Notes under the pieces: model-generated
What the model was told of the DNA's origin: nothing
Databases searched by the model: none
What the model saw: only the letters and a program-made list of their open reading frames with translations
Position numbers and translations under genes: made by a program
Origin: an uncultured Pseudomonadota bacterium
Lineage (GTDB): Bacteria > Pseudomonadota > Alphaproteobacteria > RF32 > CAG-239
Direction of reading: 5' to 3'
Assembly: GCA_949289935.1 (NCBI GenBank)
Contig: CASEQD010000002.1
Location: forward strand, 1,847-65,846
DNA: 64,000 nt
In this document: positions 4,411 through 23,642 of the stretch, in pieces
Position numbering within the stretch: position 1 is the first letter of the stretch
Layout: the number at the start of each line of letters is the position of its first letter

Positions 4411-4447
4411 ATGTGAATGATTCGGAGAAAAATTGTGAATTGCGGGC

Positions 4448-4475: not shown

Positions 4476-4501
4476 ACTTGCATAAGTTGACAATATTATT
4501 G

Positions 4502-4530: not shown

Positions 4531-4546
4531 GTTAAGGAATTGCCAA

Positions 4547-5050: not shown

Positions 5051-5073
5051 TTGAAACTTTAACATATACATAA

Positions 5074-6612: not shown

Positions 6613-6729
6613 ACTCAGCTTTTGTGCGGTTTGGAAGTTTTTATGTCTTTATTAAAGTTTTTATGCTAAAAATTTTTCAAACCGCATGAAGCGCGATGTT
6701 TGTATGGCGTGTTGTCCGAAGAGAGAAAG

Positions 6730-7302: not shown

Positions 7303-7340
7303 ACGATAAGCAGAAAAAGAGAAATTGGAGATAATAGTTT

Positions 7341-9827
7341 ATGACCGAGGGTAATGTAAAAGGAAAATTAACGTTGTCGGGAAAGTCTACCCTGACATTG
7401 AAAAACGTGAGCGAGGCATCCCGGCCGCACCATAATGACGGCAAAAAGGTTGTGCAGGTTGAAGTTCGCAAAAAAAGAATTATCGGAAACCGGGGAGAGC
7501 AGGAAGAACCGAAGGTTAAAATAGACGAAGCTACAGCCGCTAAATTGAAGCTTCTTGCCGAAGCTAAAGAACATGATGCTAGACGTCGTCAGGAAGAAGA
7601 AGAAAAGGAACGTTTGCGTTTGCAAAGAAAAGAGGCGGAAGAGCAGGAAAAAGCCCGTAAGGAAGCTGAAGCCCGTCAGGCTGAGGAGGAAAAGGCCGCC
7701 GCTTCCGCGCAACAGACGGCAAAGGAAGAGGCCGCTTCCCAAACGGATAGCACTGTTGTTTCGCAGTTTAAAGCAAAACCCAAGAAATCGTATGATTTTG
7801 ATGAAGATGACAGCGAAGAAGGTTTTCACGGGCATAAATTTAATAAAAAAATTCAGGATAAGTCTTTAAGCAAAGATGAAGTTTTTGAGCAGGAACGCCG
7901 GAAAATTACAAAACGCAGTTTTGAGACACCCCGCCGCGGCGGCAAAGTTAATTTGCAAAATTACGGCAATGATGATTATGATGATGATGACTTTGGTTTC
8001 GGGGTGCCGCACCGCCGGTTTAAGAAAAAACAGCCGAAAACCCAGTCTTTGCAGCCGCCGGTAGAAAAAATCGTTAAAGAAGTCATTATTCCGGAAATTA
8101 TTACGGTTCAGGAATTGGCCAACCGCATGGCGGAAAAAAGCGCCGAAGTTATAAAGAAGCTGATGGCGCTTGGTGTTATGGCTACAATTAATCAGCCGAT
8201 TGATGCCGATACGGCTCAGATTATTGTTGAGGAATTCGGGCATAAATTCAAACGGGTTGCCGACAGTGATGTCGAGCAAGGCCTGACCGGTCCGGAAGAT
8301 AAACCTGAGGATCTGCTGCCCCGGGCGCCGGTGGTTACGGTTATGGGGCATGTCGATCACGGTAAAACTTCGCTGCTTGATGCCTTGCGCGAGACAAACG
8401 TGGCGGCTCGCGAAGCCGGCGGTATTACCCAGCATATCGGCGCTTATCAGATTGAAGTTGCCGGCGGAAAGAAAATTACGTTTATTGATACGCCGGGACA
8501 TGAGGCTTTTTCGGAAATGCGAGCCCGCGGCGCCAAAGTGACGGATATTGTTGTTTTGGTGGTTGCCGCCAATGATGGAATTATGCCGCAGACGGTGGAA
8601 GCTATACGCCATGCTCAGGCTGCAGAAGTTCCGATTGTGGTCGCTATTAATAAGATTGATCTTCCTGGTGCCGATCCGATGAAAGTTAAGACGGCTTTAT
8701 TGCAGCATGGTATTGCCGTGGAGGACATGGGCGGCGAGTATTTGTGCGCCGAAGTTTCCGCTAAGAAAAGGATAAATATTGATAAACTGGTAGAAGCTAT
8801 TTTGCTTCAGGCGGAAATTTTGGATTTGAAAGCAAATCCCAACCGGATGGCTGCAGGAACGGTTATTGAAGCCAAGATGGAAAAAGGCCGGGGGTCGGTA
8901 GCGACGGTTTTGGTTCAGAACGGGACGCTGCATGTCGGTGATGTTTGTATTGCCGGCAAGGAATGGGGGCATGTCCGCGCCATGTTTAACGAAAACGGCA
9001 AGAAAGTTCCGGAAGCCGGTCCGGCAACGCCGGTGGAAATTCTTGGTTTACAAGGAACGCCTGCGGCCGGTGATGATTTTGTTATTGTTAAAAATGAAGA
9101 TCAGGCCAAGGAAGTTACCGGTTACCGAATCCGCAAAGAAAGAGAAGCCAAGCTGGTTAAAAGCGCTAAGTCGGCGATGGAACAGATGCTGGACAAGATT
9201 AAATCAGGCGAGGTTAAACATTTGCCGGTTATTATCAAAGCCGATGTTCAGGGCTCTATTGAGGCGATTGAAGGCACAATCAAAAAGCTTTCCAATGATG
9301 AAGTCAGTGTTCAGATTTTACATTCCGCAGTCGGGCCGATTTCAGATTCTGATGTTACATTGGCAAAGGCTTCCAATGCTTTTATTGTCGGTTTTAATGT
9401 CAGGGCTATTCCTCATGCGCGCGATTTGGCTCGTCAGGATGGTGTTGATATTCGTTATTATTCCATTATTTATGATGTGGCCGATGATATTAAAAAAGCT
9501 CTGGAAGGAATGCTTTCTCCCGAATTGCGTGAAAAAATCATCGGTTATGCGGAAATTCGTAATGTATTTAATATTACCGGGGTTGGCAAAGTCGGCGGCT
9601 GCATGGTTACCGAAGGTTTTGTCCGGCGCGGCGCCAAAGTCAGGCTGTTGCGTGACAATGTGGTTATTCATGACGGGGCATTGGCGCAGCTGAAACGCTT
9701 TAAAGAAGATGTTAAAGAGGTTAAAGCCGGGTATGAGTGCGGTATGAGTTTTGAAAACTATAATGATATTCAGGTCGGAGATTTTATTGAATGTTATGAA
9801 GTGGAGGAAATTGCAGCGACATTATAG
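7341..9827 (+). CDS. infB: translation initiation factor IF-2
   Basis: 828 aa with a Lys/Glu-rich N-terminus and a GTPase core ([24 protein letters not shown]). Confidence 0.95.
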
Positions 9828-9852
9828 ATGTTTGTTATGTTAAAGCAAAAAA

Positions 9853-9879
9853 GCGGGGAGTTTTCTTCGCTTTTTTTTT
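9853..9879 (+). terminator. putative intrinsic terminator after infB
   Basis: A short GC stem with two G-U pairs (GCGGGG/CTTCGC) followed by T9. Confidence 0.4.
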
Positions 9880-9880
9880 G

Positions 9881-9908
9881 TTGACTTTTGTCTAATAAGG
9901 CGTAGTAT
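9881..9908 (+). promoter_or_regulatory. sigma70-like promoter of the ORFan at 9949
   Basis: TTGACT, a 16-nt spacer, then TAGTAT. The TTGACTTTTGTCTAA part is identical to 17907-17921. Confidence 0.4.
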
Positions 9909-9948
9909 ACCTTACGATATTTTATTATTTATTTAAATTATTAAACAT

Positions 9949-10491
9949 ATGAAAAAATTTTTTGAAATTCTGAACGCAATCGGTTTGTACAAAGCAAAAC
10001 AGGAAGGGTGTTTTTCACAAAAGCAGCAGCAAAAGCCTGTTGTTGAGGAAATTGAAATTTTTGACGGAAAAGAATATCCTTTTGAGTTGGTGTATGAGGA
10101 TGACAGTGTTTCGAACGTGTTTACTTCCGGAAAGAAAATTAAGGGTGTGATTTTGTCTCAGAACGGCAGGCATTTGTTTGTCGGGCGTTTTTTTTCCCGC
10201 CGGAAGCTTACTCAGGGCAAGGCCGCGGAATATTGTAAAAAAATTTCGTTTCGGGGAAAAATGTGCCGTCAGATGAATGAAGATGAGCTGAGGTATTTGT
10301 GCAATGAAAATGCGGCGTTGTTGAATGACGCTCCGGGGATTTTACTGATTCCGGATGATTTTGTCTGGACTGAAGTTCCGGTTCCTGCTTATCGGGGTTT
10401 TTATCTGGTTGTAAATTTACAGACAGGAATGGCTGCCTGGAAAAACGGCGCCTATTATTGTTATGCCGTGCCGGTTTGCAGTTTGGATTAA
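9949..10491 (+). CDS. hypothetical protein with DUF1566/Lcl-C-like motifs and no signal peptide
   Basis: KAAEYCKKISFRGKMCRQMNEDELRYL resembles the eA..yC....WRLPt..EL signature. VWTEV...VVNLQTGMAAWKNG...YAVPVC resembles the C-terminal half of that domain. Confidence 0.4.
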   Translation: MKKFFEILNAIGLYKAKQEGCFSQKQQQKPVVEEIEIFDGKEYPFELVYEDDSVSNVFTSGKKIKGVILSQNGRHLFVGRFFSRRKLTQGKAAEYCKKISFRGKMCRQMNEDELRYLCNENAALLNDAPGILLIPDDFVWTEVPVPAYRGFYLVVNLQTGMAAWKNGAYYCYAVPVCSLD

Positions 10492-10502
10492 GTAAAAAAT
10501 TG

Positions 10503-10535
10503 AAAAAAAGCTTCGGAAGTTTCCGAAGCTTTTTT
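10503..10535. terminator. bidirectional intrinsic terminator
   Basis: A7-GCTTCGG-loop-CCGAAGC-T6, sitting between convergent genes. Confidence 0.6.
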
Positions 10536-10551
10536 GTTGTTGTTAAGTTTT

Positions 10552-10857
10552 TTAGAATTCTATAACTTGATATGTTCCGCTTGTTTTACCTGAACCGTTT
10601 TTGAAAGTTGTGTATAGTTCATGTAAATAATTGCCTCCGCAAGATAAAAACCAAATAGAATTCTGGTCAAATTCTGTTGAAGAGTATACATTAGTCAGAT
10701 ACCCATTACCGGCATAATCGTAATTATGGCAGATTTTCGCTCCCAGTTTTTCGAATACGCTGTGGTTTCCAAATATCATGCATTTACAATTTTCTTCTTC
10801 ATCTGCCGGTATAATACCTCTGCTGCCGGACAGATTCAGCAAGGATATTTTTTTCAC
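10552..10857 (-). CDS. short DUF1566-like protein (C-terminal-half homolog of the secreted family); GTG start
   Basis: 101 aa ending ...YSSTEFDQNSIWFLS...GTYQVIEF. Compare WSSTEY...AWAW...VWPVIEF in the neighbouring paralog. It has no signal peptide and is divergent from paralog A. Confidence 0.35.
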   Translation of the reverse strand: MKKISLLNLSGSRGIIPADEEENCKCMIFGNHSVFEKLGAKICHNYDYAGNGYLTNVYSSTEFDQNSIWFLSCGGNYLHELYTTFKNGSGKTSGTYQVIEF

Positions 10858-10860
10858 CTC

Positions 10861-11145
10861 TGTATGAAATTAATGATTGAACACTTGTGAAATTCATGCT
10901 ACACTAAAACCAGTGATGATAAAGTGTGGAGGATGAAATGCGTGTGATTCTTTCCGCCGGCAAAAGGATATATTTTACCCTGCTGGCTTTTTACCCTGCT
11001 GGCTTCTTCTTTTATGTTCCCGGTTTCCGCTTTTGCCCAGTGCGTGAAAAATGAAAATTGTGCGGCGTTAGGCTATGATTCGACAACAGCATGCGATAAC
11101 GGCATCAAATGCCCGTTTGGGGAATATTGGGCGTGTCCCGAACCT
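10861..11145 (+). repeat. conserved 5' module of the secreted-protein family, copy A (promoter, 5'UTR, signal peptide, first Cys motif)
   Basis: Near-identical to the reverse complement of 19177-19451 and 44735-45002. It includes TTGAAC-17-TACACT (10877-10905), a GGAGG RBS and ATG 10938. Confidence 0.8.
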
Positions 11146-11778
11146 GTCAAACCGGAAGGCGCCGTCCTCGGTCAGTGTAACGGGTATGCCAAAAACTGCA
11201 AAATCGGCGATATTCTTTATACGGACGGTATCTGTTCCGCCGATGTCGTTTCCGGTAAAACCCCGATTGCCGTCGTCGTTTATATCGGCGGGGATGGTTG
11301 TGGCCAGGCTTTGGCGTTGGAAAATTTGGGTAAAATGGTTTGGTCTACGGAAAATGTTAATATTCCGGAACTGGAAAATTTTTGGAATAAAGCTGAAAGT
11401 AATTACAGCAGTTGTAAAAATACACACGCTGTTTTAGAATACAGTAATGAAAAATATAAAAATGCGGCTTCACAATATTATCCTGCTTTTAAGGCTGTTA
11501 ACGATTATACACCATCGATTATCCCTGAAACCAAGGGTAAATGGTGTCTGCCGGCCGGCGGTGTATTGGACAGTATTTCCAAAAATACAAAAATCATAGG
11601 TACTGCTTTGGTGAAAACAGGTAAAGATAATTTTAATGTTTCCGGATGGTTGACCCTATGGTCATCAACGGAGTATACTGATAATACGGCATGGGCATGG
11701 ACATTAACAGGGGAGTTATCTCATGGTTCCACTTTTAAAAATTCTGACATATATGTCTGGCCGGTAATTGAGTTTTAA
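10938..11778 (+). pseudogene. secreted Cys-rich DUF1566-like protein, paralog A, frameshifted in the signal peptide
   Basis: From ATG 10938 the frame ends at TGA 11052-11054. Deleting one 16-bp unit joins it in frame to ORF 11014-11778 (MFPVSAFAQCVKNENCAALGY...WCLPAGGVL...LWSSTEY...VWPVIEF). Confidence 0.65.
10973..11004. repeat. perfect 16-bp tandem duplication (TTTTACCCTGCTGGCT x2)
   Basis: Read directly from the sequence. The other two paralogs carry a single unit at the homologous site. Confidence 0.95.
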
Positions 11779-11794
11779 AATTTGATATATACCA

Positions 11795-11829
11795 ACAGAA
11801 AACGCTTCCGGAGAGGAAGCGTTTTCTGT
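11795..11829. terminator. bidirectional intrinsic terminator
   Basis: A perfect 15-bp stem, ACAGAAAACGCTTCC / GGAAGCGTTTTCTGT, with loop GGAGA and a T-run on the + side. It lies between convergent genes. Confidence 0.7.
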
Positions 11830-11833
11830 TGTT

Positions 11834-14668
11834 TTATTTCCGTTCGGTTTTATCCATCGGCAGGGGGTCTTTTGAACCGCTGTTGTAGAGGATGGCATTG
11901 CTGATTTCGGAATTCTTAACCGGAATGTCTTTAATCTGTTTTCCGCAGATTTCCAGTCCGACACTCTTTATTGCGGTGGCAATCGGCAGGAACAGGTCGG
12001 CATTTTGTCCGGCTTTCTGTCCGGTATGAGCCAAACCGGCGATGGTGCCGTGCTGGTCGATCAGAGCTCCGCCGAGCGTGATATCCTGAACGAAAGTATC
12101 AACAATAATTTCGGTGCCGCGGTCTTCGGAATAACGGTAGCCGCTGACTTTTCCGGAATTTTCGAGATAGCCTTCACCGGTATCAAAGTCCAGAATGCCG
12201 AGGGTCAGATAAGTTTCCTGACTAATCGGCGGCAGATCGAGGTTCAGAGACAGCGGTGTGTAGGCGGTTTTCTTTTCCATGAACAACAGGGCAACGTTTT
12301 TCTTCGGGTTAATCCGGACAGCATGTCCTTTAAATTTGACACCGTTGATGGTTTGCAGTTCATAAGTATTGTTATCTTTGGTGATTAAATCCGCCGAGGT
12401 CAGGACAAACTGGTCTGAGATAATCAGACCGGCGCCTTTCCGTCCTTTGTTGTTGGCAATGGAAATGATTGAAGCGCGGATTTTGTAAACATCTTCAGGC
12501 GTTAACGGCGCGTCATAAGCCGGGCGTTCGATTATGCAAAGGCTGTTTTGCGCATCAAGGGCGCTCTTATCTTCGACCGGCAGAGATACCCATGTTTCTT
12601 TGGTGACGGAACCGGTTGCCTCGACACCGCCTTTTTCTTCAATATCAAGATCAATGTTATTGGCAATTTTGCAACCTTCAGGATCATGGGCGCAATCGCC
12701 GAACATGGTTTGTTTGTCGCAGCCGCCATAGAATTTGTTGTCTTCACAACCGCGATAGAGCTTATTGTCTTCGCAGCCGCGGTAGAGTTTATTATTGCAG
12801 TCGCAATCAGGGCCGAACAATGTCATATTATTGCACGGCGTTTCCGGTTTGGGCAGCGGCGGAACGGGCAGGGGAATCGTACCGCCCGGGTTTTCCATGG
12901 TTACAGTGTTTAAGTCCACTTCAATTTCGGCGGCATTTTCAATAACTTCTTTTTGTCCGTAGCGTTTTTCCGGCGCTTCAGGCAACAGGCTGATATCCAG
13001 AGGTTCGGACGGACGTTCTTTTTCGAGCAAATCAACAGCATTGACGGGTGCCGGTTCTTCTATTGTCGTTACCACGGCAGAGATGGTTTTTGTTGTCGTT
13101 TCTGCTACAGGCAGAGGCACGGGAGGCGTCGGAACGGCCGGTGTCGGCAGGGAAACTTCGACCGGTTCTTTTTCAATAACGGTTGTTTCAATTTTTTCTT
13201 TAACGATTATGGGTTCGCTCTTTTCCAGCGGCAGAGGCGCCGGCGGCGTTTTGACAATGCTTCCGTCCGATTGTTTTTGAACAACGGAACCATCGGAAAG
13301 TTTTGCCACGCTGGTCGGAACCGGGAGTTGTTCTTTAAGATAATCCGGTTTGATCAGAGGAGAAGGCGCTGCCGGTTCCGGTACTTTTACTTTTTCCGCA
13401 GGTTTGTCGGGGGTGTAAATATATTTGCTGGTTTGTCCGGCTTCAATGTCGTGTTTTGTGTATTGACACTTCAGCGGATTGACTTCACGTTCGTGTTCAA
13501 TGTAGGCAATTCTCTGGTTTTCTTTTTCCGCAGGACTTAGACGGTGTGTCAGTTGTTTTTGGAAACCCGGGTGGTTGCCGAGGTTGTTGGCCGCATCGGC
13601 AAAGGCTCTTTCCACCAGAAGGATTTCACCGTTTTGTTCGCCGCGCTTCAGTTCGCCGTAACCGTTGGTTTCTCCGCTCCAATAGGCTTTTGTTTTGTTT
13701 ATGTCGGTGATTGTCCATTTAACTGTGATTTCGGAGGAGCCGGTGCGCCGGTCTTCACGGATGCTGTTGTCCCAGTCATATTCATCACAGACGTTCATGA
13801 AGTAATTGGTGATTTCCGCCGTAACGAGATATTCAGGGAGCGGGCTGGGCGTATCTTCCGTACAGACATCATCCGGAATTTTTATGAAATTGTAGCATTC
13901 TTTAAGTTCATTTTCGAAAACAGAGATGAGACGCATGTTTTGCCGCAGCAGCCGTCCCTGATCCAGAATAGCTTCTTTGCTGAAACGGCGGCAGCCGAAA
14001 ATGCGGAAGCGGTAATTGCCGAGTTTTTGTGGAAAGGCGTCATTTAAATCATCGCCGTTTAAACGAAAATCAACCCATTCCAACTGGATGGGGGCGAATT
14101 TTTTGCATTGATTATGAATGCTGCGGTAGACATCTCTCCGGCCGACGGTGATGTAGTTGTTTACGAAATTTTCCCGCCGGGGGGCGATTTCTTCTGCTGT
14201 AATCCGACGCTTTTTTACCGGTTTGCAGACGGCTTTTTTAGGGGCTGGTTTTACTTTGACGCAGCCGCGCATTTCATCCGAAGAACAACCGTGGCCGGGA
14301 AAAATGCTGTTGTCCTGTTTTTTTGTTGATTCGCAACAGGTGCCGCCGAATATACTGCCGTCACGGTAGGTTTTTCCCGTGCTTTTAACATTGACTACCG
14401 GTTGCGGACGACGTTGTTCCAACCGTGTGTTTATGCGGCTGTCGGCTTCTCCGGAGAAGGAAATTTCTTTGGGGCGGGCTTCGTCGAAAAAGCCCATGGA
14501 GCGGCTTAATCCCGTATATTCTGTACGGACGGTGCGACTGCCGGCCGGTGTTTCTTCGCGGAAAGAGTTGCCGTATTGGGAAGCCATGCTTTCGGAGAAT
14601 GCCGCACTGCATAAGGACAAAGCCATGGCAGAACAGGCCAAGAGTTTGAAACACCGTGTGATTTTCAT
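11834..14668 (-). CDS. large secreted or lipoprotein-like protein with a Pro-rich linker, Cys-rich repeats and a C-terminal trypsin-like (S1C-type) domain lacking the catalytic triad
   Basis: 944 aa. Signal/lipobox-like N-terminus (KLLACSAMALSLCSAAFS), a PxP-rich middle and NKLYRGCED repeats. The C-terminus reads GAGLIISDQFVLTSADL / NVALLF / TLGGALIDQHGTIAGL, which mimics the GSGFxI..TNxHV / DxALL / GNSGGPL blocks. Confidence 0.6.
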   Translation of the reverse strand: MKITRCFKLLACSAMALSLCSAAFSESMASQYGNSFREETPAGSRTVRTEYTGLSRSMGFFDEARPKEISFSGEADSRINTRLEQRRPQPVVNVKSTGKTYRDGSIFGGTCCESTKKQDNSIFPGHGCSSDEMRGCVKVKPAPKKAVCKPVKKRRITAEEIAPRRENFVNNYITVGRRDVYRSIHNQCKKFAPIQLEWVDFRLNGDDLNDAFPQKLGNYRFRIFGCRRFSKEAILDQGRLLRQNMRLISVFENELKECYNFIKIPDDVCTEDTPSPLPEYLVTAEITNYFMNVCDEYDWDNSIREDRRTGSSEITVKWTITDINKTKAYWSGETNGYGELKRGEQNGEILLVERAFADAANNLGNHPGFQKQLTHRLSPAEKENQRIAYIEHEREVNPLKCQYTKHDIEAGQTSKYIYTPDKPAEKVKVPEPAAPSPLIKPDYLKEQLPVPTSVAKLSDGSVVQKQSDGSIVKTPPAPLPLEKSEPIIVKEKIETTVIEKEPVEVSLPTPAVPTPPVPLPVAETTTKTISAVVTTIEEPAPVNAVDLLEKERPSEPLDISLLPEAPEKRYGQKEVIENAAEIEVDLNTVTMENPGGTIPLPVPPLPKPETPCNNMTLFGPDCDCNNKLYRGCEDNKLYRGCEDNKFYGGCDKQTMFGDCAHDPEGCKIANNIDLDIEEKGGVEATGSVTKETWVSLPVEDKSALDAQNSLCIIERPAYDAPLTPEDVYKIRASIISIANNKGRKGAGLIISDQFVLTSADLITKDNNTYELQTINGVKFKGHAVRINPKKNVALLFMEKKTAYTPLSLNLDLPPISQETYLTLGILDFDTGEGYLENSGKVSGYRYSEDRGTEIIVDTFVQDITLGGALIDQHGTIAGLAHTGQKAGQNADLFLPIATAIKSVGLEICGKQIKDIPVKNSEISNAILYNSGSKDPLPMDKTERK
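12714..12791 (-). repeat. in-frame 27-nt tandem repeats encoding NK(L/F)Y(R/G)GC(E/D) units
   Basis: 12738-12764 and 12765-12791 are near-identical. 12714-12737 is a shorter, diverged third unit. Confidence 0.8.
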
Positions 14669-14681
14669 TTAATTTTCTCCA

Positions 14682-16205
14682 TTATTTTCTCCGGTCGGGT
14701 AAAGCTCTGCGGTAAGACAAAGCTTCAGCTATATGCAGTTTAAGCACATTTTCATTATTTTGCAAGTCTGCAATTGTTCTTGCTAACCGTAAAATGCGAT
14801 GGTAAGCGCGGGCGGAAAGATTGTTTTTGTCGGCAAAAGCAATCAAAAGCGCTTCGGCGTCGTTGTCCAGCCGTACGGCTTGTTCCAGCAAGCTGCCTTT
14901 CAGTTCGGCATTTGTGTGCAGTTCAGGATGTCCGAAACGGCGGAATCTTTCGGTTTGGATGTTGCGGGCGGCAACAACCCTTTTTAAGATTTCAGCCGAA
15001 GTTTCACCGGTTTTGATATCGGCAATTTCCCAGGGACTAACGGCAGGAACTTCAATTTGTATGTCTATGCGATCCAGCAGAGGACCGGATATCCGCGCCT
15101 GATATTCTTCGGCACATTTCGGAGCACGGGAGCATTCAAAGCGGGGATTGCCCAAATTGCCGCACCGGCAAGGGTTCATTGCCGCGATAAGCTGAAATTT
15201 TGCCGGATAGGTTGTGTGAGCGTTGACGCGGGATATAGTGATGCTGCCATTTTCCAGAGGCTGACGCAGGGCTTCCAATGTCGCCCGGTTGAATTCGGGA
15301 AGCTCGTCCAAGAACAAAACGCCGTTGTGGGCGAGAGAAATTTCGCCCGGTTCAGCCCGCCGTCCGCCGCCGACCAGTGCAGGCGTCGATGCATTATGAT
15401 GCGGCGCCCGGAAAGGACGTTCAAAACAAAGCTGTCCTTCTTTCAGAATGCCGGCAACGGAGTGAATCATGCTGGTTTCAAGCGCTTCTTCGGCCGTGAG
15501 CGGCGGCAGAATTCCCGGTAATCTGGCGGCAAGCATGCTTTTCCCGGCACCGGGCGGGCCGATCATGAGCATGTTGTGTCCGCCTGCAGCCGCAATTTCC
15601 AATGCTTTTTTTGCACTTTCCTGACCTTTGACATCTTTCATGTCGGGATGTCTGAGAGACGGCATTTTATGCGGCCGGCCGGGCGGCGGGATGAGTTGAG
15701 CGCCCTTGAAGTGGTTGATGAGCGCCAGAAGCGACGGCGCCGCTATGATGTTTTTTAAGCCGGACCACGCTGCTTCGGCTCCCTGTGCTTCGGGGCAGAT
15801 GAGCCCCAGGTTTTGTTCATTGGCTTTGATTGCGACGGGGAGAGCTCCGTTAACGGGAAGAATGTTTCCGTCCAGGCTTAATTCGCCCAGAACAAGATAT
15901 CCGGAAAGTTCTTCCGAAGGGATGATGCCCATTCCGCACAGCAGTCCCAGAGCGACAGGCAAGTCAAAATGCGCTCCTTCTTTTAACAAATCGGCCGGCG
16001 CGAGGTTGACAATAATGCGTTTGGCCGGGACGGACAGTCCCAGCGAACTGAGCGCGGCGCGTACGCGTTCGCGGCTTTCCGCCACGGATTTATCCGGCAG
16101 GCCGACAATGGAAAATGCCGGCATTCCCGAAGAAAGTTGTACCTGGAGGTCAACATTTATAACATCCAGCCCGTTGAAAGTTATCGTATTGATTCTGGAC
16201 AGCAT
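14682..16205 (-). CDS. yifB: YifB/ComM family Mg-chelatase-like AAA+ ATPase
   Basis: 507 aa with a Lon-protease-like N-domain, Walker A GPPGAGKS, GVLFLDELPEF and a typical C-terminal helical domain. Confidence 0.9.
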   Translation of the reverse strand: MLSRINTITFNGLDVINVDLQVQLSSGMPAFSIVGLPDKSVAESRERVRAALSSLGLSVPAKRIIVNLAPADLLKEGAHFDLPVALGLLCGMGIIPSEELSGYLVLGELSLDGNILPVNGALPVAIKANEQNLGLICPEAQGAEAAWSGLKNIIAAPSLLALINHFKGAQLIPPPGRPHKMPSLRHPDMKDVKGQESAKKALEIAAAGGHNMLMIGPPGAGKSMLAARLPGILPPLTAEEALETSMIHSVAGILKEGQLCFERPFRAPHHNASTPALVGGGRRAEPGEISLAHNGVLFLDELPEFNRATLEALRQPLENGSITISRVNAHTTYPAKFQLIAAMNPCRCGNLGNPRFECSRAPKCAEEYQARISGPLLDRIDIQIEVPAVSPWEIADIKTGETSAEILKRVVAARNIQTERFRRFGHPELHTNAELKGSLLEQAVRLDNDAEALLIAFADKNNLSARAYHRILRLARTIADLQNNENVLKLHIAEALSYRRALPDRRK

Positions 16206-16211
16206 GTTTGG

Positions 16212-16553
16212 TTACCACCTGGGCGTTCTTTCATATTCCCTCCAACGGCGGGTGGGGTTGGTTTCTCTGGTGAGAAAATCATAATTTGCCGTTTTATAAG
16301 GGATATCGCGGAAACGGACGTAGTTTTTCTTTTCAAAACTTCTGGCGCAGCTTTCGGCTGAGGAAAAAGCCGTGCGGTAGCAATGAACGATGTTTCTGGA
16401 AACGGGTTCCAGCAGGCTGATTGATTCAGGAACATTGACATAGTCTGCCGGAGCTGGGATGTACCGGATTGTTTTTCCGCCAGGCGTAAACCAGGCACAG
16501 GAACTTCCTGCCAGCAGGGTGCATACCGCAACCATAATTTTGAACTTTGACAT
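16212..16553 (-). CDS. putative small lipoprotein
   Basis: Signal peptide with lipobox-like LLAGSSC. It lies 6 nt upstream of yifB on the same strand. Confidence 0.45.
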   Translation of the reverse strand: MSKFKIMVAVCTLLAGSSCAWFTPGGKTIRYIPAPADYVNVPESISLLEPVSRNIVHCYRTAFSSAESCARSFEKKNYVRFRDIPYKTANYDFLTRETNPTRRWREYERTPRW

Positions 16554-16664
16554 TTGTTGTTTATTTCCCGTTAGTTTTTTAGTTGAATTTAGCAGAAAAT
16601 AATTAATATATCATAAACGCATCGGGGATGAAGGGTGCGAAAAAATGTTTTTTATAAAAAAAGC

Positions 16665-16692
16665 TTGCAAAATAAAGTTTTTGGTGTATATT
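16665..16692 (+). promoter_or_regulatory. sigma70-like promoter of rpsF-rpsR-rplI
   Basis: TTGCAA, a 16-nt spacer, then TATATT, about 90 nt upstream of rpsF. Confidence 0.4.
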
Positions 16693-16782
16693 ACGCCCGT
16701 TCCTTGCTCGCAAAAAGCGGGCTATACAATAGAACCAGCCCGGTTTCCGGGCATTTGTTGAGAATCCATAAGGAGATTTTGT

Positions 16783-17112
16783 ATGACTAATTATGAAAGC
16801 GTGCTGATTGCACGTCAGGATTTGGGCGCCTCCCAAGTCAGCAGCATTGTCGATGAACTGACAAATGTTGTTAAAAAAGAAGGCGGCGAAGTTGTCAGAG
16901 TTGATAACTGGGGTTTGAAAAATCTGGCTTACCGCATTAAGAAAAACCGCAAAGGCCATTATGTTTTGATGAACATTACCGCTCCGGCCGGGGCTATTGC
17001 CGAACTGGAACGGGTTATGCGCTTTAACGAAGATATTATCCGTTATATGACGGTTAAAGTCGACGAATTCAGCGAAGTTTCGTCGTCCGAAAAAGAAGCT
17101 GCGGAAGAATAG
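16783..17112 (+). CDS. rpsF: 30S ribosomal protein S6
   Basis: YESVLIARQD... plus an acidic C-terminus, and the rpsF-rpsR-rplI gene order. Confidence 0.9.
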   Translation: MTNYESVLIARQDLGASQVSSIVDELTNVVKKEGGEVVRVDNWGLKNLAYRIKKNRKGHYVLMNITAPAGAIAELERVMRFNEDIIRYMTVKVDEFSEVSSSEKEAAEE

Positions 17113-17124
17113 GAGGTTAAGACA

Positions 17125-17352
17125 ATGGCTAAACAGGTATTTTTCAGAAGAAAGAAAACTTGTCCGTTTTCCGGTGAAGATGCTTTGAAGATTGATTATA
17201 AAGACGTTAAGCTTCTTTCAAGATATATTTCGGAAAAAGGAAAAATCATTCCCAGCCGCATTACTGCGGTTTCCGTTAAAAAGCAGAGAGAACTGGCCCG
17301 CGCCATCAAACGCGCCCGCTATATCGGTCTGCTTCCGTTTGTGGCTGATTAG
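17125..17352 (+). CDS. rpsR: 30S ribosomal protein S18
   Basis: [35 protein letters not shown] motif. Confidence 0.9.
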
Positions 17353-17366
17353 GAAGGAGAGAAAAT

Positions 17367-17852
17367 ATGGAAATTATTCTTCTGGAACATGTAGACAAAC
17401 TGGGTAAAATGGGCGACAAGGTTACCGTTAAAAACGGTTATGCCCGTAACTATCTTCTGCCGAGCAAAAAGGCACTGCGCGCCACAGAGGCCAATGTTGC
17501 TTTTTATGAAAAGAAAAAGGCAGAGCTTGAAGCCCACAATAAGGCTTTGTTTGACGAGGCTTCCAAAAAAGCCGAGGCTCTCAAAGGCTACAGCGCGGTT
17601 CTTATCCGTCAGGCTGCCGAAACCGGTCAGCTGTATGGTTCCGTTACCATTCGCGATATTGCCGCTGCTATTAAAGAATCCGGTTTTGAAGTTGAACGCC
17701 GCTGCGTTTTTCTTGATAAGCCGATTAAGGATCTGGGAATTTACGAAGTTAAGCTGAATCTTCATCCGGAAGTTACTCAGACAATTTTGGTGAATGTTGC
17801 CAGAACTGATGATGATGCCAAAAAACAGGCTAAGGCTTACGAAAATAACTAG
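17367..17852 (+). CDS. rplI: 50S ribosomal protein L9
   Basis: MEIILLEHVDKLGKMGDKVTVKNGYARNYLLP N-terminal domain. Confidence 0.9.
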   Translation: MEIILLEHVDKLGKMGDKVTVKNGYARNYLLPSKKALRATEANVAFYEKKKAELEAHNKALFDEASKKAEALKGYSAVLIRQAAETGQLYGSVTIRDIAAAIKESGFEVERRCVFLDKPIKDLGIYEVKLNLHPEVTQTILVNVARTDDDAKKQAKAYENN

Positions 17853-17874
17853 TTTGTTTTTTGTCGGTTTTGAA

Positions 17875-17905
17875 GCAGGGTGCTCAGGTACTCTGCTTTT
17901 TTTTT
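17875..17905 (+). terminator. intrinsic terminator after rplI
   Basis: GCAGGGT / ACTCTGC stem (one G-U pair), 8-nt loop, then T9. Confidence 0.6.
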
Positions 17906-17906
17906 G

Positions 17907-17935
17907 TTGACTTTTGTCTAAATTTTAGATATAAA
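17907..17935 (+). promoter_or_regulatory. sigma70-like promoter of the ORFan at 17976
   Basis: TTGACT, a 17-nt spacer, then TATAAA. The first 15 nt are identical to 9881-9895. Confidence 0.5.
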
Positions 17936-17975
17936 GGGAATGATATTGTATTTTTTTAATTATAATTATAGAATT

Positions 17976-18428
17976 ATGAAAAAGAAAAAATTTCAAGGAA
18001 GTGTCAAATTTGACATTTTGTATGCCGGTGGTGAAATTTCGGAAAATTTGATTCCGGGGAAGAAAATTGAAGCAGTTGCTTATAACGGGTATGCAGTTTG
18101 GGCAGAAGATGTTCCGGAGTGGTTTACCAGCGAGGAAGCGGCTGAAAAGGTGAAGAATTTTTCTATCGGCGGGCAGGTTTGCAATTTGGGGCCTGATGGA
18201 TTTTGGACATCAATTAAGTTTGTCTCGGATGAGTTGAAACAGTTTATGTTAGGAATTCGTGTTGCACCCATCAGAGGCGCCGTGTGGACAGAAAAGCTTC
18301 GGGACGGGGACGTGAATAAAAGGGTTTTTGTTTATCCTGATACCGGGGAATTTGGCGCACAGAACAGAGAGACGAACTTTATCCGTCCGGTGGTTCGGGT
18401 GGCCGACTGTTCATTAAAGCGGATTTGA
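17976..18428 (+). CDS. hypothetical protein with DUF1566/Lcl-C-like motifs and no signal peptide
   Basis: WFTSEEAAEKVKNFSIGGQVC..., GAVWTEK...VFVYPDTGEFG...FIRPVVRV. It shares GKKI(K/E)(G/A)V with the 9949 protein. The start is the ATG at 17976; the ORF track begins at 17940. Confidence 0.4.
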   Translation: MKKKKFQGSVKFDILYAGGEISENLIPGKKIEAVAYNGYAVWAEDVPEWFTSEEAAEKVKNFSIGGQVCNLGPDGFWTSIKFVSDELKQFMLGIRVAPIRGAVWTEKLRDGDVNKRVFVYPDTGEFGAQNRETNFIRPVVRVADCSLKRI

Positions 18429-18449
18429 GATGAAATTTTTTGTGTAAAG

Positions 18450-18484
18450 AAAGGGTTCCGGGATTTGTCCGGAGCCCTTTTTTT
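18450..18484. terminator. bidirectional intrinsic terminator
   Basis: GGGTTCCGG / CCGGAGCCC stem (one G-U pair) followed by T7, with an A-rich 5' flank, between convergent genes. Confidence 0.6.
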
Positions 18485-18498
18485 GTTAGGAAGTGCTT

Positions 18499-19368
18499 CT
18501 AAAATTCAAAGTAGTTCCATACATATACACCTGTATCAAAAAGGTCTATGGGAATTTCTTGTAATTCCGATGTTTCAAATTTTAACTGAGATTCTGGAGC
18601 ATAATAATCCATTCTTATGCTGTATCCCCATAATACATTTGCGGCGCCTGATACGGCAGCGTTGGTGCTGAATGTCCGGAAATTTTGCCATTCGAAACCA
18701 TCAAAGGAGGTCAGTCCGGCTCTGGTAAGTTTGTGTGCTATTTCCGTTAAATTGTTTATTAGAGACTTTGCTACGCCGCCGGGTATGCCGATTTCCCGAA
18801 AATTTGAATTGAAATTGTTTTCAGCTTCGGTTTTTGTGAGTTTTGGCAGATTATTGTAATAATTGTTGGTTAAAACATAGGAATTAACGGATGATCTACC
18901 GATATAACCGGTTACGGCATATCCGCCGCCGCCGGGTTTTGTGTAGGCAACCACGCCTTTGGGGGTTTTTGAACTGTCAAAGTTGTAGGAGCAGGTATCG
19001 TCGGTGTAATAAATGTATCCGATTTGACATTTGGGAAGAGTTTTACTGCAGGTTCCGTTGTTCCATTCATATCCGGCAGCGCAGTTGCAGAAAGTGTATT
19101 TTCCATTGCAGGCTCCGGTTAACGGCTTTTTTTGATTGGTTCCGGTGCAAGTGTATTTGTATGACGTACCGCATTTTTCTTCCGGGCACGCCCAATACTC
19201 GCCGAACGGGCATTTCAGGCAATTTTCTTTGTTGGTTGTTTCTGTATAACCCAAAGCAGAACAGTCTTTATTTTCCACGCACTGGGCAAAAGCGGAAATT
19301 GGGAACATAAAAGAAGAAGCCAGCAGGGTAAAATATACCTTTTTGCCGGCGGAAAGAATCACACGCAT
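18499..19368 (-). CDS. secreted Cys-rich protein, paralog B (family N-terminal module with a divergent C-terminal region)
   Basis: MRVILSAGKKVYFTLLASSFMFPISAFA-QCVENKDCSALGY...KCPFGEYWACPEE. An AFA-Q signal-peptidase site is present, and the C-terminus ends ...VWNYFEF. Confidence 0.6.
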   Translation of the reverse strand: MRVILSAGKKVYFTLLASSFMFPISAFAQCVENKDCSALGYTETTNKENCLKCPFGEYWACPEEKCGTSYKYTCTGTNQKKPLTGACNGKYTFCNCAAGYEWNNGTCSKTLPKCQIGYIYYTDDTCSYNFDSSKTPKGVVAYTKPGGGGYAVTGYIGRSSVNSYVLTNNYYNNLPKLTKTEAENNFNSNFREIGIPGGVAKSLINNLTEIAHKLTRAGLTSFDGFEWQNFRTFSTNAAVSGAANVLWGYSIRMDYYAPESQLKFETSELQEIPIDLFDTGVYVWNYFEF

Positions 19369-19451
19369 TTCATCCTCCTCCTCCACACTTTATCATCACT
19401 GATTTTAGTGTAACATGAATTTTCTAATTGTTCAATCATTATTTTCATGCA
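19177..19451 (-). repeat. conserved 5' module of the secreted-protein family, copy B
   Basis: The reverse complement aligns with 10861-11145 and with the reverse complement of 44735-45002. It includes TTGAAC-17-TACACT and the signal-peptide codons. Confidence 0.8.
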
Positions 19452-19498
19452 GAAATGAAAAAAATGAAGAGGATTTTTTTTGATTCATACCCCACCCG

Positions 19499-19518
19499 CC
19501 TCCCCTACTCAGGGGAGG
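19499..19518. repeat. perfect hairpin CCTCCCCT-ACTC-AGGGGAGG
   Basis: 8-bp stem with a 4-nt loop. The identical hairpin occurs at 45155-45174. Half-sites TACTCAGGGGAGG recur at 19533-19545 and 19663-19675. Confidence 0.85.
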
Positions 19519-19579
19519 AAAAATGGAGAGGATACTCAGGGGAGGGATATAAGGAGTAAAGCAAAGCTGCTTCGGTCAA

Positions 19580-19636
19580 CTGAATTGTAACGATTGTTTC
19601 CTTAGGCTGCCGCCTGTTCACAATCTAACAATTCAG
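19580..19636. other. long imperfect hairpin in an intergenic region
   Basis: cTGAATTGT (19580-19588) pairs with ACAATTCAg (19628-19636). GATTGT (19592-19597) pairs with ACAATC (19620-19625). The loop is 22 nt. Confidence 0.6.
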
Positions 19637-19701
19637 ACTCTGTCGTTGAAAAACAATTGATGTACTCAGGGGAGGAAACGATTGTTGCTTTTTGATTTTT
19701 C

Positions 19702-19730
19702 TTGATTATCAAAGGTTTTCACGTTATAAA
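19702..19730 (+). promoter_or_regulatory. sigma70-like promoter of rbfA-truB
   Basis: TTGATT, a 17-nt spacer, then TATAAA, 31 nt upstream of the rbfA ATG. Confidence 0.5.
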
Positions 19731-19760
19731 GTAAGCAGTTTTGATTTGAGGAGAAAATTT

Positions 19761-20150
19761 ATGGCAGAAAAAGAGCCGTCCCAGCGTCAGCTGCGGGTGG
19801 GACAGGAAATAAAGAAAATTATTGCCAACCAGATTCAGCGGGATGAAATTCGCAATCTGCAGGGAATTGATACGCTGGTTACGGTTATGGAAGTCAGGGT
19901 GTCGCCGGATTTGAAATATGCGACCGTATATGTGATTACCTCGGATAAAAGCACCGAACAGGCCGTTATCGGCGGATTGCAACTGGCGGCGAATTATTTG
20001 CGCAAAGTGATTATTTCCAAAACAGACCTGCGGTATGTGCCGGAGCTGAGCTTTCGGATAGACAAGACATTTGAAGAAGTCGACAAGATTGAAAAATTGT
20101 TAAGAGATCCGAAAGTTAAACAGGATTTGGATCACAAGGAACAGAATTAA
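19761..20150 (+). CDS. rbfA: ribosome-binding factor A
   Basis: RQLRVGQEIKKIIANQIQRDEIRN..., VTVMEVRVSPDLKYATVYV. GAGGAG RBS. The ORF track extends to 19692. Confidence 0.85.
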   Translation: MAEKEPSQRQLRVGQEIKKIIANQIQRDEIRNLQGIDTLVTVMEVRVSPDLKYATVYVITSDKSTEQAVIGGLQLAANYLRKVIISKTDLRYVPELSFRIDKTFEEVDKIEKLLRDPKVKQDLDHKEQN

Positions 20151-20160
20151 AAAGGTTTTT

Positions 20161-21069
20161 ATGAAGCATAATAAAGGCGAAGACATAAACGGCTGGCTGG
20201 TGGTGGATAAGCCGCGGGGTATGGGTTCAACCGAAGTGGTGCGGCGGACGAAGCGTTTGTTTCATGCTAAAAAGAACGGACATGCGGGGACGCTTGATCC
20301 TTTTGCCACGGGATTGCTTCCGGTGGCTTTCGGCGAGGCGACCAAGCTTTTGCCTTTTGTTACCGACGGGGTTAAAGAATATGAATTTGTTTTGCAGTTC
20401 GGCGCTTCGACGGATACGGATGATTCCGACGGGAAAGAAATTTCCCGTTGCGGAAAATTTCCGACCCGGGCGGAAATAGAGGCGGTTATTCCGTTTTTTC
20501 TGGGGCGGATTGTTCAGGTGCCGCCGGCTTATTCCGCAATTAAAATAAACGGCTGCCGTGCTTATGAACTGGCTCGAAAAGGAATCGAGACAGAACTTTC
20601 CGGACGCGAGGTGGAAATTTATGATTTGAAATTGACGGAAGAGCTTCCGAATCATCAGGCCAGATTTTATGTGAAGTGTTCAAAGGGAACTTATGTGCGT
20701 ACGCTGGGCAAAGATATTGCCCTTAAACTTGGTTCTTTGGGGTATTTGCAGGAGCTGCGGCGTACAAAATGCGGAATTTTTGATTTGAAGCATAAAATTT
20801 TGCTGGAAAATTTGGAAAATATCGTGTATGGTGAAGACCTTAAAAAGTTTTTGCTTCCGATTGAAACATTTCTGTGCGACATCACGGTTATTGCGGTTTC
20901 GGAAGCAGATGCCGCCAAACTCAGAAAAGGGCAGGCAATTTCTCCGAAGGCTTATGATGTGTCAAAGCCGGCAGGAGAGGAAGTTGTTGCTGTTTTTGAA
21001 GGAAAGCCGGCGGCAATAGTGCGAATCGATGAGCGGAAAATTGCTCCGGTTCGAGTGTTTAATCTTTAA
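20161..21069 (+). CDS. truB: tRNA pseudouridine(55) synthase TruB
   Basis: [13 protein letters not shown]..., [22 protein letters not shown] catalytic Asp motif. Confidence 0.9.
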
Positions 21070-21088
21070 AAAAATAAAGGAAATAAAG

Positions 21089-21361
21089 ATGTCGTCTATT
21101 ACAAGCGAAGAAAAAAAAGAAATTGTAAGCAAATTCGGTTTGAATCCGAATGATACGGGTTCTCCGGAAGTTCAGATTGCTATCTGGACAGCCAGAATCA
21201 ACAAGCTTATCGGGCATTTCAATGTTCATAACAAAGATTTGCATTCCCGTTTGGGCCTGATGAAAATGGTCAGCCGCCGCCGGCACCTTCTTGATTATCT
21301 GAAAGGTAAGGACAACAACAGATATCAGGAAATTATCAAAAAGCTGGATCTGCGTAAATAA
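21089..21361 (+). CDS. rpsO: 30S ribosomal protein S15
   Basis: [48 protein letters not shown]. Confidence 0.9.
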
Positions 21362-21371
21362 ATTTTAAAGT

Positions 21372-21420
21372 CGGGAGCCGTTCCGGCAGTTTTTGGCGGG
21401 GCTCCCGGCTTTGGTGTTTT
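21372..21420 (+). terminator. rpsO terminator / pnp leader hairpin
   Basis: CGGGAGCC (21372-21379) pairs with GGCTCCCG (21400-21407), followed by a T-rich tract. Confidence 0.5.
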
Positions 21421-21503
21421 GTTATAATTATTGTGCTTTATATTAAAATCCCGGAGCAGACCAATTTCGGGTGAGGTTTTATAAAGATGTTTGAAAAGAT
21501 GAA

Positions 21504-23642
21504 ATGAAAGGTAAAAGAAATATGGTCGAGTTGAATGTTTGCCGCAAAGAAATGGAATGGGGCGGCAGAAAGTTAGTGTTGGAAACAGGTAAAATTGCCA
21601 AACAGGCACAAGGAGCCGTGGAAGCAACTTACGGAGGAACGACGGTTTTGGCTACGGTATGTGCTGCGAAAGAGGCTGCGCCCGATCAGGATTTCTTTCC
21701 TTTAACCGTTAATTATCAGGAAAAATATTATGCGACCGGAAAAGTTCCGGGCGGCTTTATGAAAAGGGAGGGAAAACCCTCCGAGCGCGAGGTGTTGATT
21801 TCGCGTTTGATAGACCGTCCTATCCGCCCGTTGTTTCCCGATGCTTTTAAAAATGAAGTACAGGTTATTTGTACGGTTTTGTCGCATGACCAGCAGACGG
21901 ATTCAGACGTGGTGGCAATGATTGCCGCTTCGGCTGCGCTGGCTGTTTCCGGAATTCCTTTTCTCGGGCCTATCGGTGCGGCTAAAATCGGTTATAAAGA
22001 CGGGCAGTATATTTTGAATCCGACTGTTGAACAACAGAAAGAATCGTTGCTTGAGCTTTCTGTTGCCGGAACATCGGAAGGTGTGCTGATGGTGGAATCG
22101 GAAGCTCAGGAATTGTCCGAAGAAACTATGCTGGGCGCCGTTATGTTTGGTTTTGAAAATTTTCAGCCGGTTATTAAGATGATTAATGAAATGGTTGAAG
22201 AAGCCGGCAAACCCAAATGGGAAACGCCTGTGTTTCCGCCGGAATTTGATGCTTTATATGAAAAGCTGGAAAAAGGTTTTATCTCCCGGTTTGAAGAAGC
22301 TTTTAAGGAAACGGATAAACTGAAACGCGGCGAATTGGTCGGGCAGGCTTCGGAAGCTTTTAAAGAAACGCTGGATCCGGAAAATGAGTTTGAGCAAAAA
22401 TATGCGCAGGACGCAATTGAAAAATTGATGCATAAAGTTGTCAGGGAGAAGGTTTTGACGACAGGACGCCGGATTGACGGGCGTGATACCAAAACCGTCC
22501 GGCCTATCTGGTGTGAAGTTGATGTTTTGCCAATGACGCACGGATCCGCCATTTTTACCCGCGGTGAGACGCAGGCTCTGGTGGTTACGACGCTGGGAAC
22601 GGGAGAAGACGCCCAGGTTGTCGACGGGTTGATGGATGAGTATAAGGAAGATTTTATGCTTAATTATAATTTTCCGCCTTTTTCCGTCGGGGAATGCGGC
22701 CGTTTGGGGAGTCCGGGACGTCGTGAAATCGGTCATGGAAAGCTGGCCTGGCGCGCCATTCATCCGATGATGCCGAAAAACAAAGATACCTTTCCCTATA
22801 CAGTCCGTGTTGTTTCGGAAATTTTGGAATCCAACGGTTCTTCTTCCATGGCGACAGTTTGCGGTTCGACTTTGTCGCTGATGGCAGCCGGCGTTCCTTT
22901 GGCAAAACCTGTTGCCGGTATTGCGATGGGGCTGATTAAGGAAGATGACGGCCGGGTTGCCGTGTTGACGGATATTCTGGGAGATGAAGATCATCTCGGG
23001 GATATGGACTTTAAGGTTGCCGGAACGAAAGACGGGGTTACGGCTTTGCAAATGGATATTAAGATTACATCCATTACCAAAGAGATTATGCAGACGGCTT
23101 TGGCTCAGGCACACGAAGGACGTATACATATTCTGGGCGAAATGGCAAAAGCAATTGCCGAGCCTCGTCCGCATGTATCTGACAGGGCGCCGCGGATTGT
23201 TGCCATCAAGATTCCGGTTGATAAAATCCGGGAAGTTATTGGTTCCGGTGGAAAAGTTATCAGGGAAATTACCGATACAACACATTGCAAAATTGATATT
23301 AATGATGACGGGGTTATCAAGATTGCCTCTTTGAAAAAAGAGGACGGGGATGCCGCACTTAACTGGATTATGGGAATTGTGGCCGAGCCGGAAGAAGGTA
23401 AGATTTATCACGGTGTGATTACCAAAATTATGGATTTCGGCGCATTTGTCCGTTTCCTTGGACAGACGGAGGGGCTGGTTCATATTTCCGAGGTGAAAAA
23501 TGAACGTATTGCTTCCGTTTCTGATTTCTATAAGGAAGGCGATCAGATCTGGGTTAAATGCCTAGGGACGGATAACCGCGGAAAGGTTAAACTTTCGGCT
23601 AAGAGAGTGAATCAGGAAACAGGGGAAGATTTGGAAAAATAA
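21504..23642 (+). CDS. pnp: polyribonucleotide nucleotidyltransferase (PNPase)
   Basis: 712 aa with two RNase PH domains, a KH domain and an S1 domain ([18 protein letters not shown]). The true start may be the ATG at 21522 (MVELNV...). Confidence 0.95.

Follow-up and report, generated by a model that had tools for sequence, protein, structure and literature searches.

In the 64,000-nt stretch of contig CASEQD010000002.1 analyzed here (hereafter, the window), which comes from an uncultured alphaproteobacterium (GTDB lineage RF32; CAG-239), the translation-factor cluster rimP-nusA-ylxR-infB-rbfA-truB-rpsO-pnp is divided in two, with 9,933 nt between the end of infB (position 9827) and the start of rbfA (position 19761). 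Based on the gene order around rbfA in relatives of this organism, we conclude that an ancient relocation in the ancestor of the genus most probably created this gap, that its two junctions may later have taken up or retained small ORFan cassettes, and that a 27-nt sequence repeated at both junctions is a conserved putative promoter. The finding is thus an ordinary operon disruption with a well-resolved comparative history. An initial annotation of this DNA had instead suggested that the split was driven by recombination between the repeats that now lie at its edges, a reading that we weigh below together with two others.

Distribution and age of the infB-rbfA split

Our gene calls are based on a listing of open reading frames (ORFs) and on Pfam and NCBIfam scans of the window proteins. 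The upstream half of the ancestral cluster (4478-9827) consists of rimP (4478-5050), nusA (5074-6612), ylxR (6700-7302), and infB (7341-9827), in an order that congeners and outgroups keep, and the downstream half (19761-23642) of rbfA (19761-20150; TIGR00082 above cut-off), truB (20161-21069), rpsO (21092-21361), and pnp (21504-23642). All members of the nusA-infB-rbfA-truB-rpsO-pnp series are present in single copy, lie on the forward strand, and score above the Pfam or NCBIfam cut-offs, in agreement with the gene identities and the two gap coordinates of the initial annotation; the adjacency of infB and rbfA that defines the canonical operon is missing. The core of the intervening DNA is a block with two divergent halves. 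Its reverse-strand half (11834-16553) holds S944, a Trypsin_2-like protein of 944 aa by its Pfam match (11834-14668), a yifB/comM-type ATPase (14682-16205; TIGR00368 above cut-off), and a small exported protein of 113 aa taken from the ORF listing (16212-16553; "lipo," hereafter the lipoprotein gene). Its forward half (16783-17852) is the rpsF-rpsR-rplI operon (16783-17112, 17125-17352, and 17367-17852; identified with Pfam), with internal spacers of 12-14 nt.

We compared about 20 kb around rbfA in 14 congeners, in 10 further genera of the family to which they belong, and in Alphaproteobacteria that are more distantly related, all annotated with the window's proteins (genomes carry G numbers, that of the window being G000). 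TruB relatives are found in metagenome-assembled genomes (MAGs) from human and animal guts, labelled "uncultured Azospirillum sp. UMGS63" (the NCBI label of the nearest record) or "uncultured Alphaproteobacteria." The complete block, S944-yifB-lipo/rpsF-rpsR-rplI, adjoins rbfA in 11 of the 14 congeners, that is, on every contig long enough to tell; on the shorter contigs of G004 and G014, rplI is still beside rbfA, and the contig of G008 starts at rbfA. A single contig carries infB, the block, and rbfA in the window, G001, G002, G003, G005, G010, and G011, with the block oriented as in the window in G001, G002, G010, and G011 and inverted in G003 and G005. Outside the genus, infB and rbfA are separated by only 6-177 nt, both in other genera (G016-G019, G021, G023, and G024) and at the level of the order (G025) and the class (G027, G030, and G035). 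In all outgroup genera, yifB-lipo/rpsF-rpsR-rplI forms a single unit at another site, without S944; in G023, which a nine-protein maximum-likelihood tree places closest to the genus (bootstrap 59), this unit is found on the strand of rimP, 7.7 kb upstream of that gene. The same tree recovers the genus as monophyletic with a bootstrap of 100. Since the congeners share the block beside rbfA and the other genera keep infB and rbfA adjacent, these gene orders indicate that the split goes back to one relocation in the ancestor of the genus. The comparison with relatives that the initial annotation had proposed therefore shows the split to be real, common to the genus, and absent from other genera of the family. 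It also shows that the annotation's division of the gap into four parts was right in gene content and wrong in one grouping, as S944 goes with the conserved, genus-level yifB block and not with a variable islet.

The cluster is very widely conserved: in a survey of >1800 genomes, the nusA-infB cassette occurred in 877, often with rbfA in the same cluster, and the rbfA-truB neighbourhood in 273 (PMC9514032). It is broken at a second place in the same family, with no truB within 10 kb of rbfA in six of the nine informative other genera. As a side observation, the rbfA-truB gap holds 0.7-4.7 kb of unrelated ORFans in every congener, including a 685-aa ankyrin-repeat-like protein in G010 (locus L053, 5247-9983), and measures 10 nt in the window only.

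The two halves of the cluster carry their own predicted transcription signals. A predicted intrinsic terminator, a hairpin followed by a run of nine T residues, lies directly behind infB (9847-9876, forward strand), and the candidate rbfA promoter that the initial annotation had pointed out, TTGATT-17-TATAAA, is found in the sequence directly 5' of rbfA (19702-19730, forward strand) and is kept upstream of rbfA in G009, G005, and G011. Together, the putative infB terminator and the conserved rbfA promoter argue against cotranscription of infB with rbfA.

Two other origins of the gap had to be considered. First, the intervening DNA could be a genomic island that entered the operon by horizontal transfer, given its ORFans and secreted-protein genes and a G+C fraction of 0.49-0.55 over S944-yifB compared to 0.40-0.46 in the flanks. 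However, scans of the window detected neither a tRNA gene nor an integrase or transposase, the insert has at its core the essential single-copy rpsF-rpsR-rplI genes and yifB, which form the same unit in every outgroup genus at 59-90% protein identity, and the genes of the block follow the species tree. With neither an integrase nor a tRNA gene and with housekeeping genes at its core, we rejected the island, to which we give hardly any weight. Second, the contigs could have been linked chimerically through multicopy repeats, as the window's genome is a 67-contig MAG in which many contig ends lie in the 5' module of a secreted-protein family or in a 99-nt repeat (both described below). The contigs of an alternative assembly (ENA ERZ17292903) also end in such elements (at 10976, 19366, and 19562), and a 16-nt duplication of the window is missing there. 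Against this stands the fact that infB, the block, and rbfA share single long contigs in six independently assembled species (178 kb in G001, 235 kb in G002, 275 kb in G010, and 582 kb in G011, with the inverted block in G003 and G005). In addition, the alternative assembly and Logan contigs of run ERR10610434 match positions 1-10976 at 100% identity, 10920-19366 at 99.8% (8,447 nt), and the window from 19562 onward, with the pieces abutting in the expected order. The overall order is hence supported by both the alternative assembly and the congeners, and we consider a misassembled join very improbable.

The 27-nt module and the ORFan cassettes

The initial annotation correctly noted that the same 27 nt follow infB and rplI, as GCTTTTTTTTTGTTGACTTTTGTCTAA is repeated exactly at 9869-9895 and 17895-17921 on the forward strand, and interpreted this repeat as a recombination junction that might mark further break points. 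These are the only two copies in the 1.72-Mb, 67-contig assembly, even with up to four mismatches allowed, and we rejected the 27-mer as a marker of other break points in this genome. Its composition suggests a different role. Predicted terminator hairpins lie directly 5' of both copies (9847-9876 behind infB and 17872-17899 behind rplI). The first copy joins the terminator tail and a T-tract to the putative promoter core GTTGACTTTTGTCTAA (9880-9895) with a −35 element TTGACT; the second joins a T-tract to the same core (17906-17921), followed after 17 nt by TATAAA, and the spacer core of the module reads TTTGTCTAA. The 27-nt identity is thus accounted for by a constrained 16-nt core, the T-run, and two further bases, and 3' of it the leaders of the two downstream genes have already diverged.

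The same arrangement of T-tract, GTTGACTTTTGTCTAA, about 7 nt, and a TAnnnT box recurs in congeners after infB, rplI, rbfA, pnp, and lptF/G. Allowing at most one mismatch, we found 79 matches to the 16-nt core in 15 of 15 genus genomes (2-17 per genome, at a near-constant distance from start codons), compared to none for a reversed-pattern control and only four in 11 outgroup genomes, one of which sits in the rbfA-truB gap of G020. All 26 distinct instances in the fetched loci precede the ATG of an ORF of 137-309 aa, at a distance of 65-83 nt in 25 of them; the exception is the gene behind rplI, X2, whose first ATG is 34 nt from the core and whose aligned start (17976) is 70 nt away. A T-tract (at least five T residues in the eight preceding bases) lies upstream of the core in 22 of the 26. 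This conservation leads us to read the 27-mer as a conserved cassette promoter fused to the tail of the preceding terminator, with no recombination scar, and to explain the identity of its two copies by sequence constraint and not by recent recombination; the promoter and terminator functions of these elements are predicted from their sequences. Recombination between the two direct repeats would, moreover, delete rpsF-rpsR-rplI. We also observed that GTTGACTTTTGTCTAA cores cluster around the nusA-pnp region (with further sites at C2:85976 and C2:81749 of the genome; loci L044-L079) and that the core variants TTGACTTTTGTCAA form a perfect TTGAC-N4-GTCAA palindrome, which could be an operator.

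Behind each module lies a DUF1566-like ORFan without signal peptide on the forward strand, X1 (180 aa, 9949-10491) after infB and X2 (150 aa, 17976-18428) after rplI, the true start of X2 being the ATG at 17976 that aligns with the start of X1; X1 is followed by a predicted terminator of its own (10504-10535). The initial annotation had called these ORFans paralogous, which appears weak by BLASTP (31% identity over 65 aa, E = 3e-4) and clear by profiles: single-sequence searches with X1 and X2 scarcely recover each other, and profile searches (jackhmmer) link X1, X2, similar genes of congeners, and the C-terminal domain of the secreted family. The X profile aligns with that domain over 139 columns (hhalign probability 97.7%, E = 1.3e-12) and matches paralog A of the family, located behind X1, with an E value of 1.9e-10. 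A short reverse-strand gene next to X1, ORF101 (10552-10857), bears only a weak resemblance to the family (hmmsearch E = 0.0035 across 25 residues); it is also present in alternative assemblies, where X1 likewise lies next to infB. An AlphaFold model of X1 from a nine-sequence alignment was too poor to test the fold (mean predicted local distance difference test score 54, predicted template modeling score 0.49), and a literature search on DUF1566 in gut Alphaproteobacteria found nothing relevant.

The content of the two junctions varies between species. The junction between infB and the block measures 2.0 kb in the window. Of the eight contiguous assemblies, seven (window, G001, G002, G003, G005, G010, and G012) have an X gene at this junction; in the eighth, G011, the junction is 274 nt long and empty. 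The junction between the block and rbfA measures 1.9 kb in the window and 121-212 nt in seven congeners, with a more distant X in G002; syntenic orthologues of X2 lie 3' of rplI in G001 (51% identity) and G004 (47%). Judging from this distribution, small X cassettes were probably ancestral at both junctions.

This brings us to the proposal that homologous recombination between cassette boundaries or family genes already present at both sites in the genus ancestor moved the block. Several observations fit: an identical promoter module and X cassettes flank the block in the window, X genes occupy the infB junction in G001, G002, G003, G005, G010, and G012, X2 has its orthologues in G001 and G004, the motif is almost genus specific, the secreted family has its greatest expansion in this very genus, and the block of G012 did move through short junction homologies (see below). 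However, the link between repeats and split is a correlation. The split is present with clean junctions in G011, infB and rbfA are still adjacent in G017 and G023 in spite of 27 and 12 family copies, neither an X cassette nor the motif follows rplI or infB in any outgroup, no pre-event pair of donor and target repeats is documented, and recombination between the direct 27-mers of today could lead only to the loss of essential genes. We therefore regard this origin of the split as unlikely. Were the junction repeats the cause, relatives without them should lack the split, and G011 contradicts this, as its junctions of 274 and 160 nt hold no ORF; the initial annotation had named the same split in close relatives without the family as a refutation, and all congeners turned out to carry 21 to at least 60 copies. 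In sum, its repeat-driven scenario does not hold for the repeats visible today, given that the split is genus-wide, the junctions of G011 are clean, and both paralogs, A and B, as well as the 99-nt repeat arose later; it retains some ground in the X cassettes, which are probably ancestral at both junctions, and in later rearrangements of the block that used short junction homologies, namely, the relocation in G012 and the inversion in the clade of G003, G005, and G012.

Some points weigh against a simple ancestral relocation followed by cassette gain. If X cassettes were indeed ancestral at both junctions, a role of repeats in the original move is possible. With the age of the original event, its breakpoints have become unreadable, and the low support of the deep nodes within the genus (bootstrap 31-61) weakens inferences of gain and loss. 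Every compared genome is a MAG, and in the window itself 196 nt (19366-19562) and a 57-nt overlap (10920-10976) lie in multicopy repeats without confirmation from a second assembly.

Taking both sides together, we favor the ancestral relocation and suggest the following course of events. A unit conserved across the family, yifB-lipoprotein divergent from rpsF-rpsR-rplI, to which S944 became attached in the genus, would have entered the infB-rbfA spacer in the genus ancestor. The insertion would have left rimP-nusA-ylxR-infB-rbfA-truB-rpsO-pnp as two transcription units, with nusA-infB stopping at a terminator of its own and rbfA-truB-rpsO-pnp starting from the conserved promoter directly 5' of rbfA. 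Self-contained ORFan cassettes may then have landed at the two new junctions or been retained there, each with a T-tract and GTTGACTTTTGTCTAA in front, followed by an AT-rich leader, a signal-less DUF1566-like gene that evolves fast, and a terminator; the 27-nt identity would be the constrained portion of the cassette. In the lineage of the window, the junctions would have further gained the frameshifted paralog A, paralog B, and a species-specific 99-nt hairpin repeat.

Later rearrangements and recent additions

The block has moved again since the genus arose. In the clade formed by G003, G005, and G012 (bootstrap 100, sister to G009), it is inverted, with the order infB-X-X-rplI(−)...S944(+)-rbfA, so that both orientations exist between species; the distribution on the tree points to a single inversion. 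No inverted repeat of at least 30 nt flanks the block in any of the three genomes, and we rejected present-day repeats as the cause of this inversion. The group of G003, G005, G009, and G012 has another palindromic repeat, about 120 nt long (...GTACAGATAGAGGCATTTCTAGCTG...), behind infB and at other sites (L048, 4236-4354 and 17896-18003; L004, about 9000-9270; L077, after infB). The first 100 nt or so of the G009 contig C51 (L052, 1-100) differ from the remainder in being extremely GC rich, and this end of the contig is probably chimeric.

In G012, infB is followed by one X gene and then by truB, and the inverted block lies with rbfA and one downstream ORF on another contig, at a site where G003 and G005 have no insert. 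The moved segment spans 7.7 kb with rpsF-rpsR-rplI, yifB, S944, and rbfA (L055, C1, and L078, C3, compared with L048 of G005 and L084/L085). All three of its junctions can be read. At the donor site, two terminator hairpins with AAAAGCTCTG in common are fused into a hybrid scar; at the left insertion junction, the target-side flank and an A-tract are joined to the rest of the donor hairpin, and at the right junction, the other donor arm is joined to the remainder of the terminator and the target's right flank. The scar and both insertion junctions thus lie in terminator hairpins sharing AAAAGCTC(TG), with homologies of 8-10 nt, and each genome has 1-7 palindromic terminators of this type. The junctions fit a scenario in which the segment was excised between two direct terminators and then inserted into a third; a duplicative version of this is possible too and would be safer given the essential cargo. 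G012 provides direct evidence that short junction homologies move the block, in a later event and another species.

Two further genes at the window's junctions belong to a Cys-rich secreted family whose members share a module of promoter, 5' untranslated region (UTR), and signal peptide. Paralog A (10847-11778, forward strand) comprises this 5' module, a duplication, and a body starting at 11014 (frames 10938/11014-11778 in the ORF listing), and is separated from the convergent S944 by a predicted bidirectional terminator of 17 bp (11793-11831). Paralog B lies on the reverse strand behind X2 (ORF 18499-19386, shared 5' module 19387-19465); between this module and rbfA lies a stretch of TACTCAGGGGAGG short repeats with the 99-nt hairpin repeat (19499-19678). 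The promoter, 5' UTR, and signal-peptide region, about 300 nt in length, is common to A and B and forms an inverted repeat (10847-11142 versus 19180-19465; segments of 48-90 nt at 79-95% identity), the arrangement expected of an invertible segment; each of the two paralogs matches other genomic copies better than its counterpart. The frameshift that the initial annotation reported for paralog A can be read directly in the window as a 16-nt tandem duplication (10973-11004). In the alternative assembly (L088, 1-140), which apparently represents the same strain (99.8% identity over 8.4 kb), the duplication is missing and paralog A is an intact ORF of 274 aa; the population may contain a mixture of ON and OFF alleles, or the difference may be an artefact of assembly where contigs were joined.

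Among the compared congeners, paralogs A and B occupy these junctions in the window alone. The 99-nt repeat (19560-19658) occurs 45 times (94-100% identity) in the window's genome, compared to 0-6 weak full-length matches (72-75%) and a few fragments of 28-29 nt at about 90% in congeners. From this distribution, A, B, and the 99-nt repeat appear to be recent, species-specific additions. The repeat has a fold z-score of about −2.8, and an Rfam scan of window positions 1-30000 (E ≤ 0.1) returned no family, so that neither it nor the leaders match a curated entry. About half of its copies lie at most 250 nt upstream of a secreted-family 5' module, many copies sit at contig ends, and it resembles a species-specific burst of the kind seen with miniature inverted-repeat transposable elements.

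The secreted family as a whole reaches at least 60 scored copies in the window's 1.7-Mb genome (about 95 ORFs by iterated search), compared to 21 to at least 60 in each congener, 6-27 in four other genera, and 0-1 in the remaining family and beyond. It is the main cause of contig breaks in G000 and its congeners, and in G007 an inserted member interrupts the block, where it separates the lipoprotein gene from rpsF (L050, 6465-7409).

Implications and comparison with known systems

The split is a clean synapomorphy, that is, a shared derived gene order, for one genus of uncultured gut Alphaproteobacteria, and it illustrates how a translation-factor cluster of very wide conservation can be split and provided with a new promoter while every gene is retained. 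It also calls for caution, since short sequences common to the edges of a rearrangement may be constrained regulatory modules and not scars. Three side results are perhaps more useful than the split itself to those who study these organisms, namely, the nearly genus-specific putative promoter that marks 2-17 ORFan cassettes per genome, the burst of the species-specific 99-nt repeat, and the relocation of essential genes in G012 with all three junctions readable. More speculatively, terminator tails and the cassette promoter could form a recombinase-free "cassette junction" in this genus, an idea that we think is rather improbable. If true, self-contained ORFan cassettes would accrete, duplicate, and disappear right behind the terminators of strongly expressed translation operons, essential blocks would be shuffled time and again through the same short homologies at the junctions (candidate events being the original split, the clade inversion, and the three-junction excision and reinsertion in G012), and the locus would be a case of natural operon remodelling by terminator/promoter microhomology and not by mobile elements.

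In Escherichia coli, the corresponding genes form the supercluster metY-rimP-nusA-infB-rbfA-truB-rpsO-pnp, which has a widespread bacterial counterpart. The two halves found here agree with it in content, order, and orientation, each being intact and co-oriented. They differ in that infB and rbfA are 9.9 kb apart with an unrelated divergent block between them, and in that rbfA has its own conserved promoter and infB its own terminator, both predicted. Similarly, rpsF-rpsR-rplI resembles the known rpsF-(priB)-rpsR-rplI operon in the contiguity of its three genes and in having its own upstream region and terminator, whereas here priB is absent and the operon moved with the divergent yifB-lipoprotein pair into another conserved operon.

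On the protein side, the closest known relative is the C-terminal domain of Legionella Lcl (DUF1566; PF07603, Lcl_C), which matches the C-terminal 75-100 residues of six of seven secreted-family members and of paralog A with E values of 8e-5 to 2e-3, and to which the X proteins are related through the homologous region of the family. All scores (18.7-22.4 bits, with 18.7 for paralog A) are below the Pfam gathering cut-off of 34.9; paralog B has no Lcl_C match, and X1 and X2 have no Pfam or NCBIfam match at all.

The recurrence of the promoter core recalls the putative mobile promoters of prokaryotes, in which identical promoter segments are found upstream of many genes. Here, too, a near-invariant segment of 16-22 nt recurs 2-17 times per genome at a near-constant distance from the ATG. 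The genes downstream of it, however, are distant homologues of each other, all signal-less DUF1566-like ORFans, so that duplication and divergence of whole cassettes would explain the recurrence and promoter mobility is not needed. Lastly, the presence of zero, one, or two small ORFan cassettes at fixed junctions, with a content that turns over between species, is reminiscent of integron cassette arrays. In contrast to these, the locus has no integrase, attI, or attC, and each cassette carries its own promoter and terminator, so that the two systems resemble each other in their outcome and not in their machinery.

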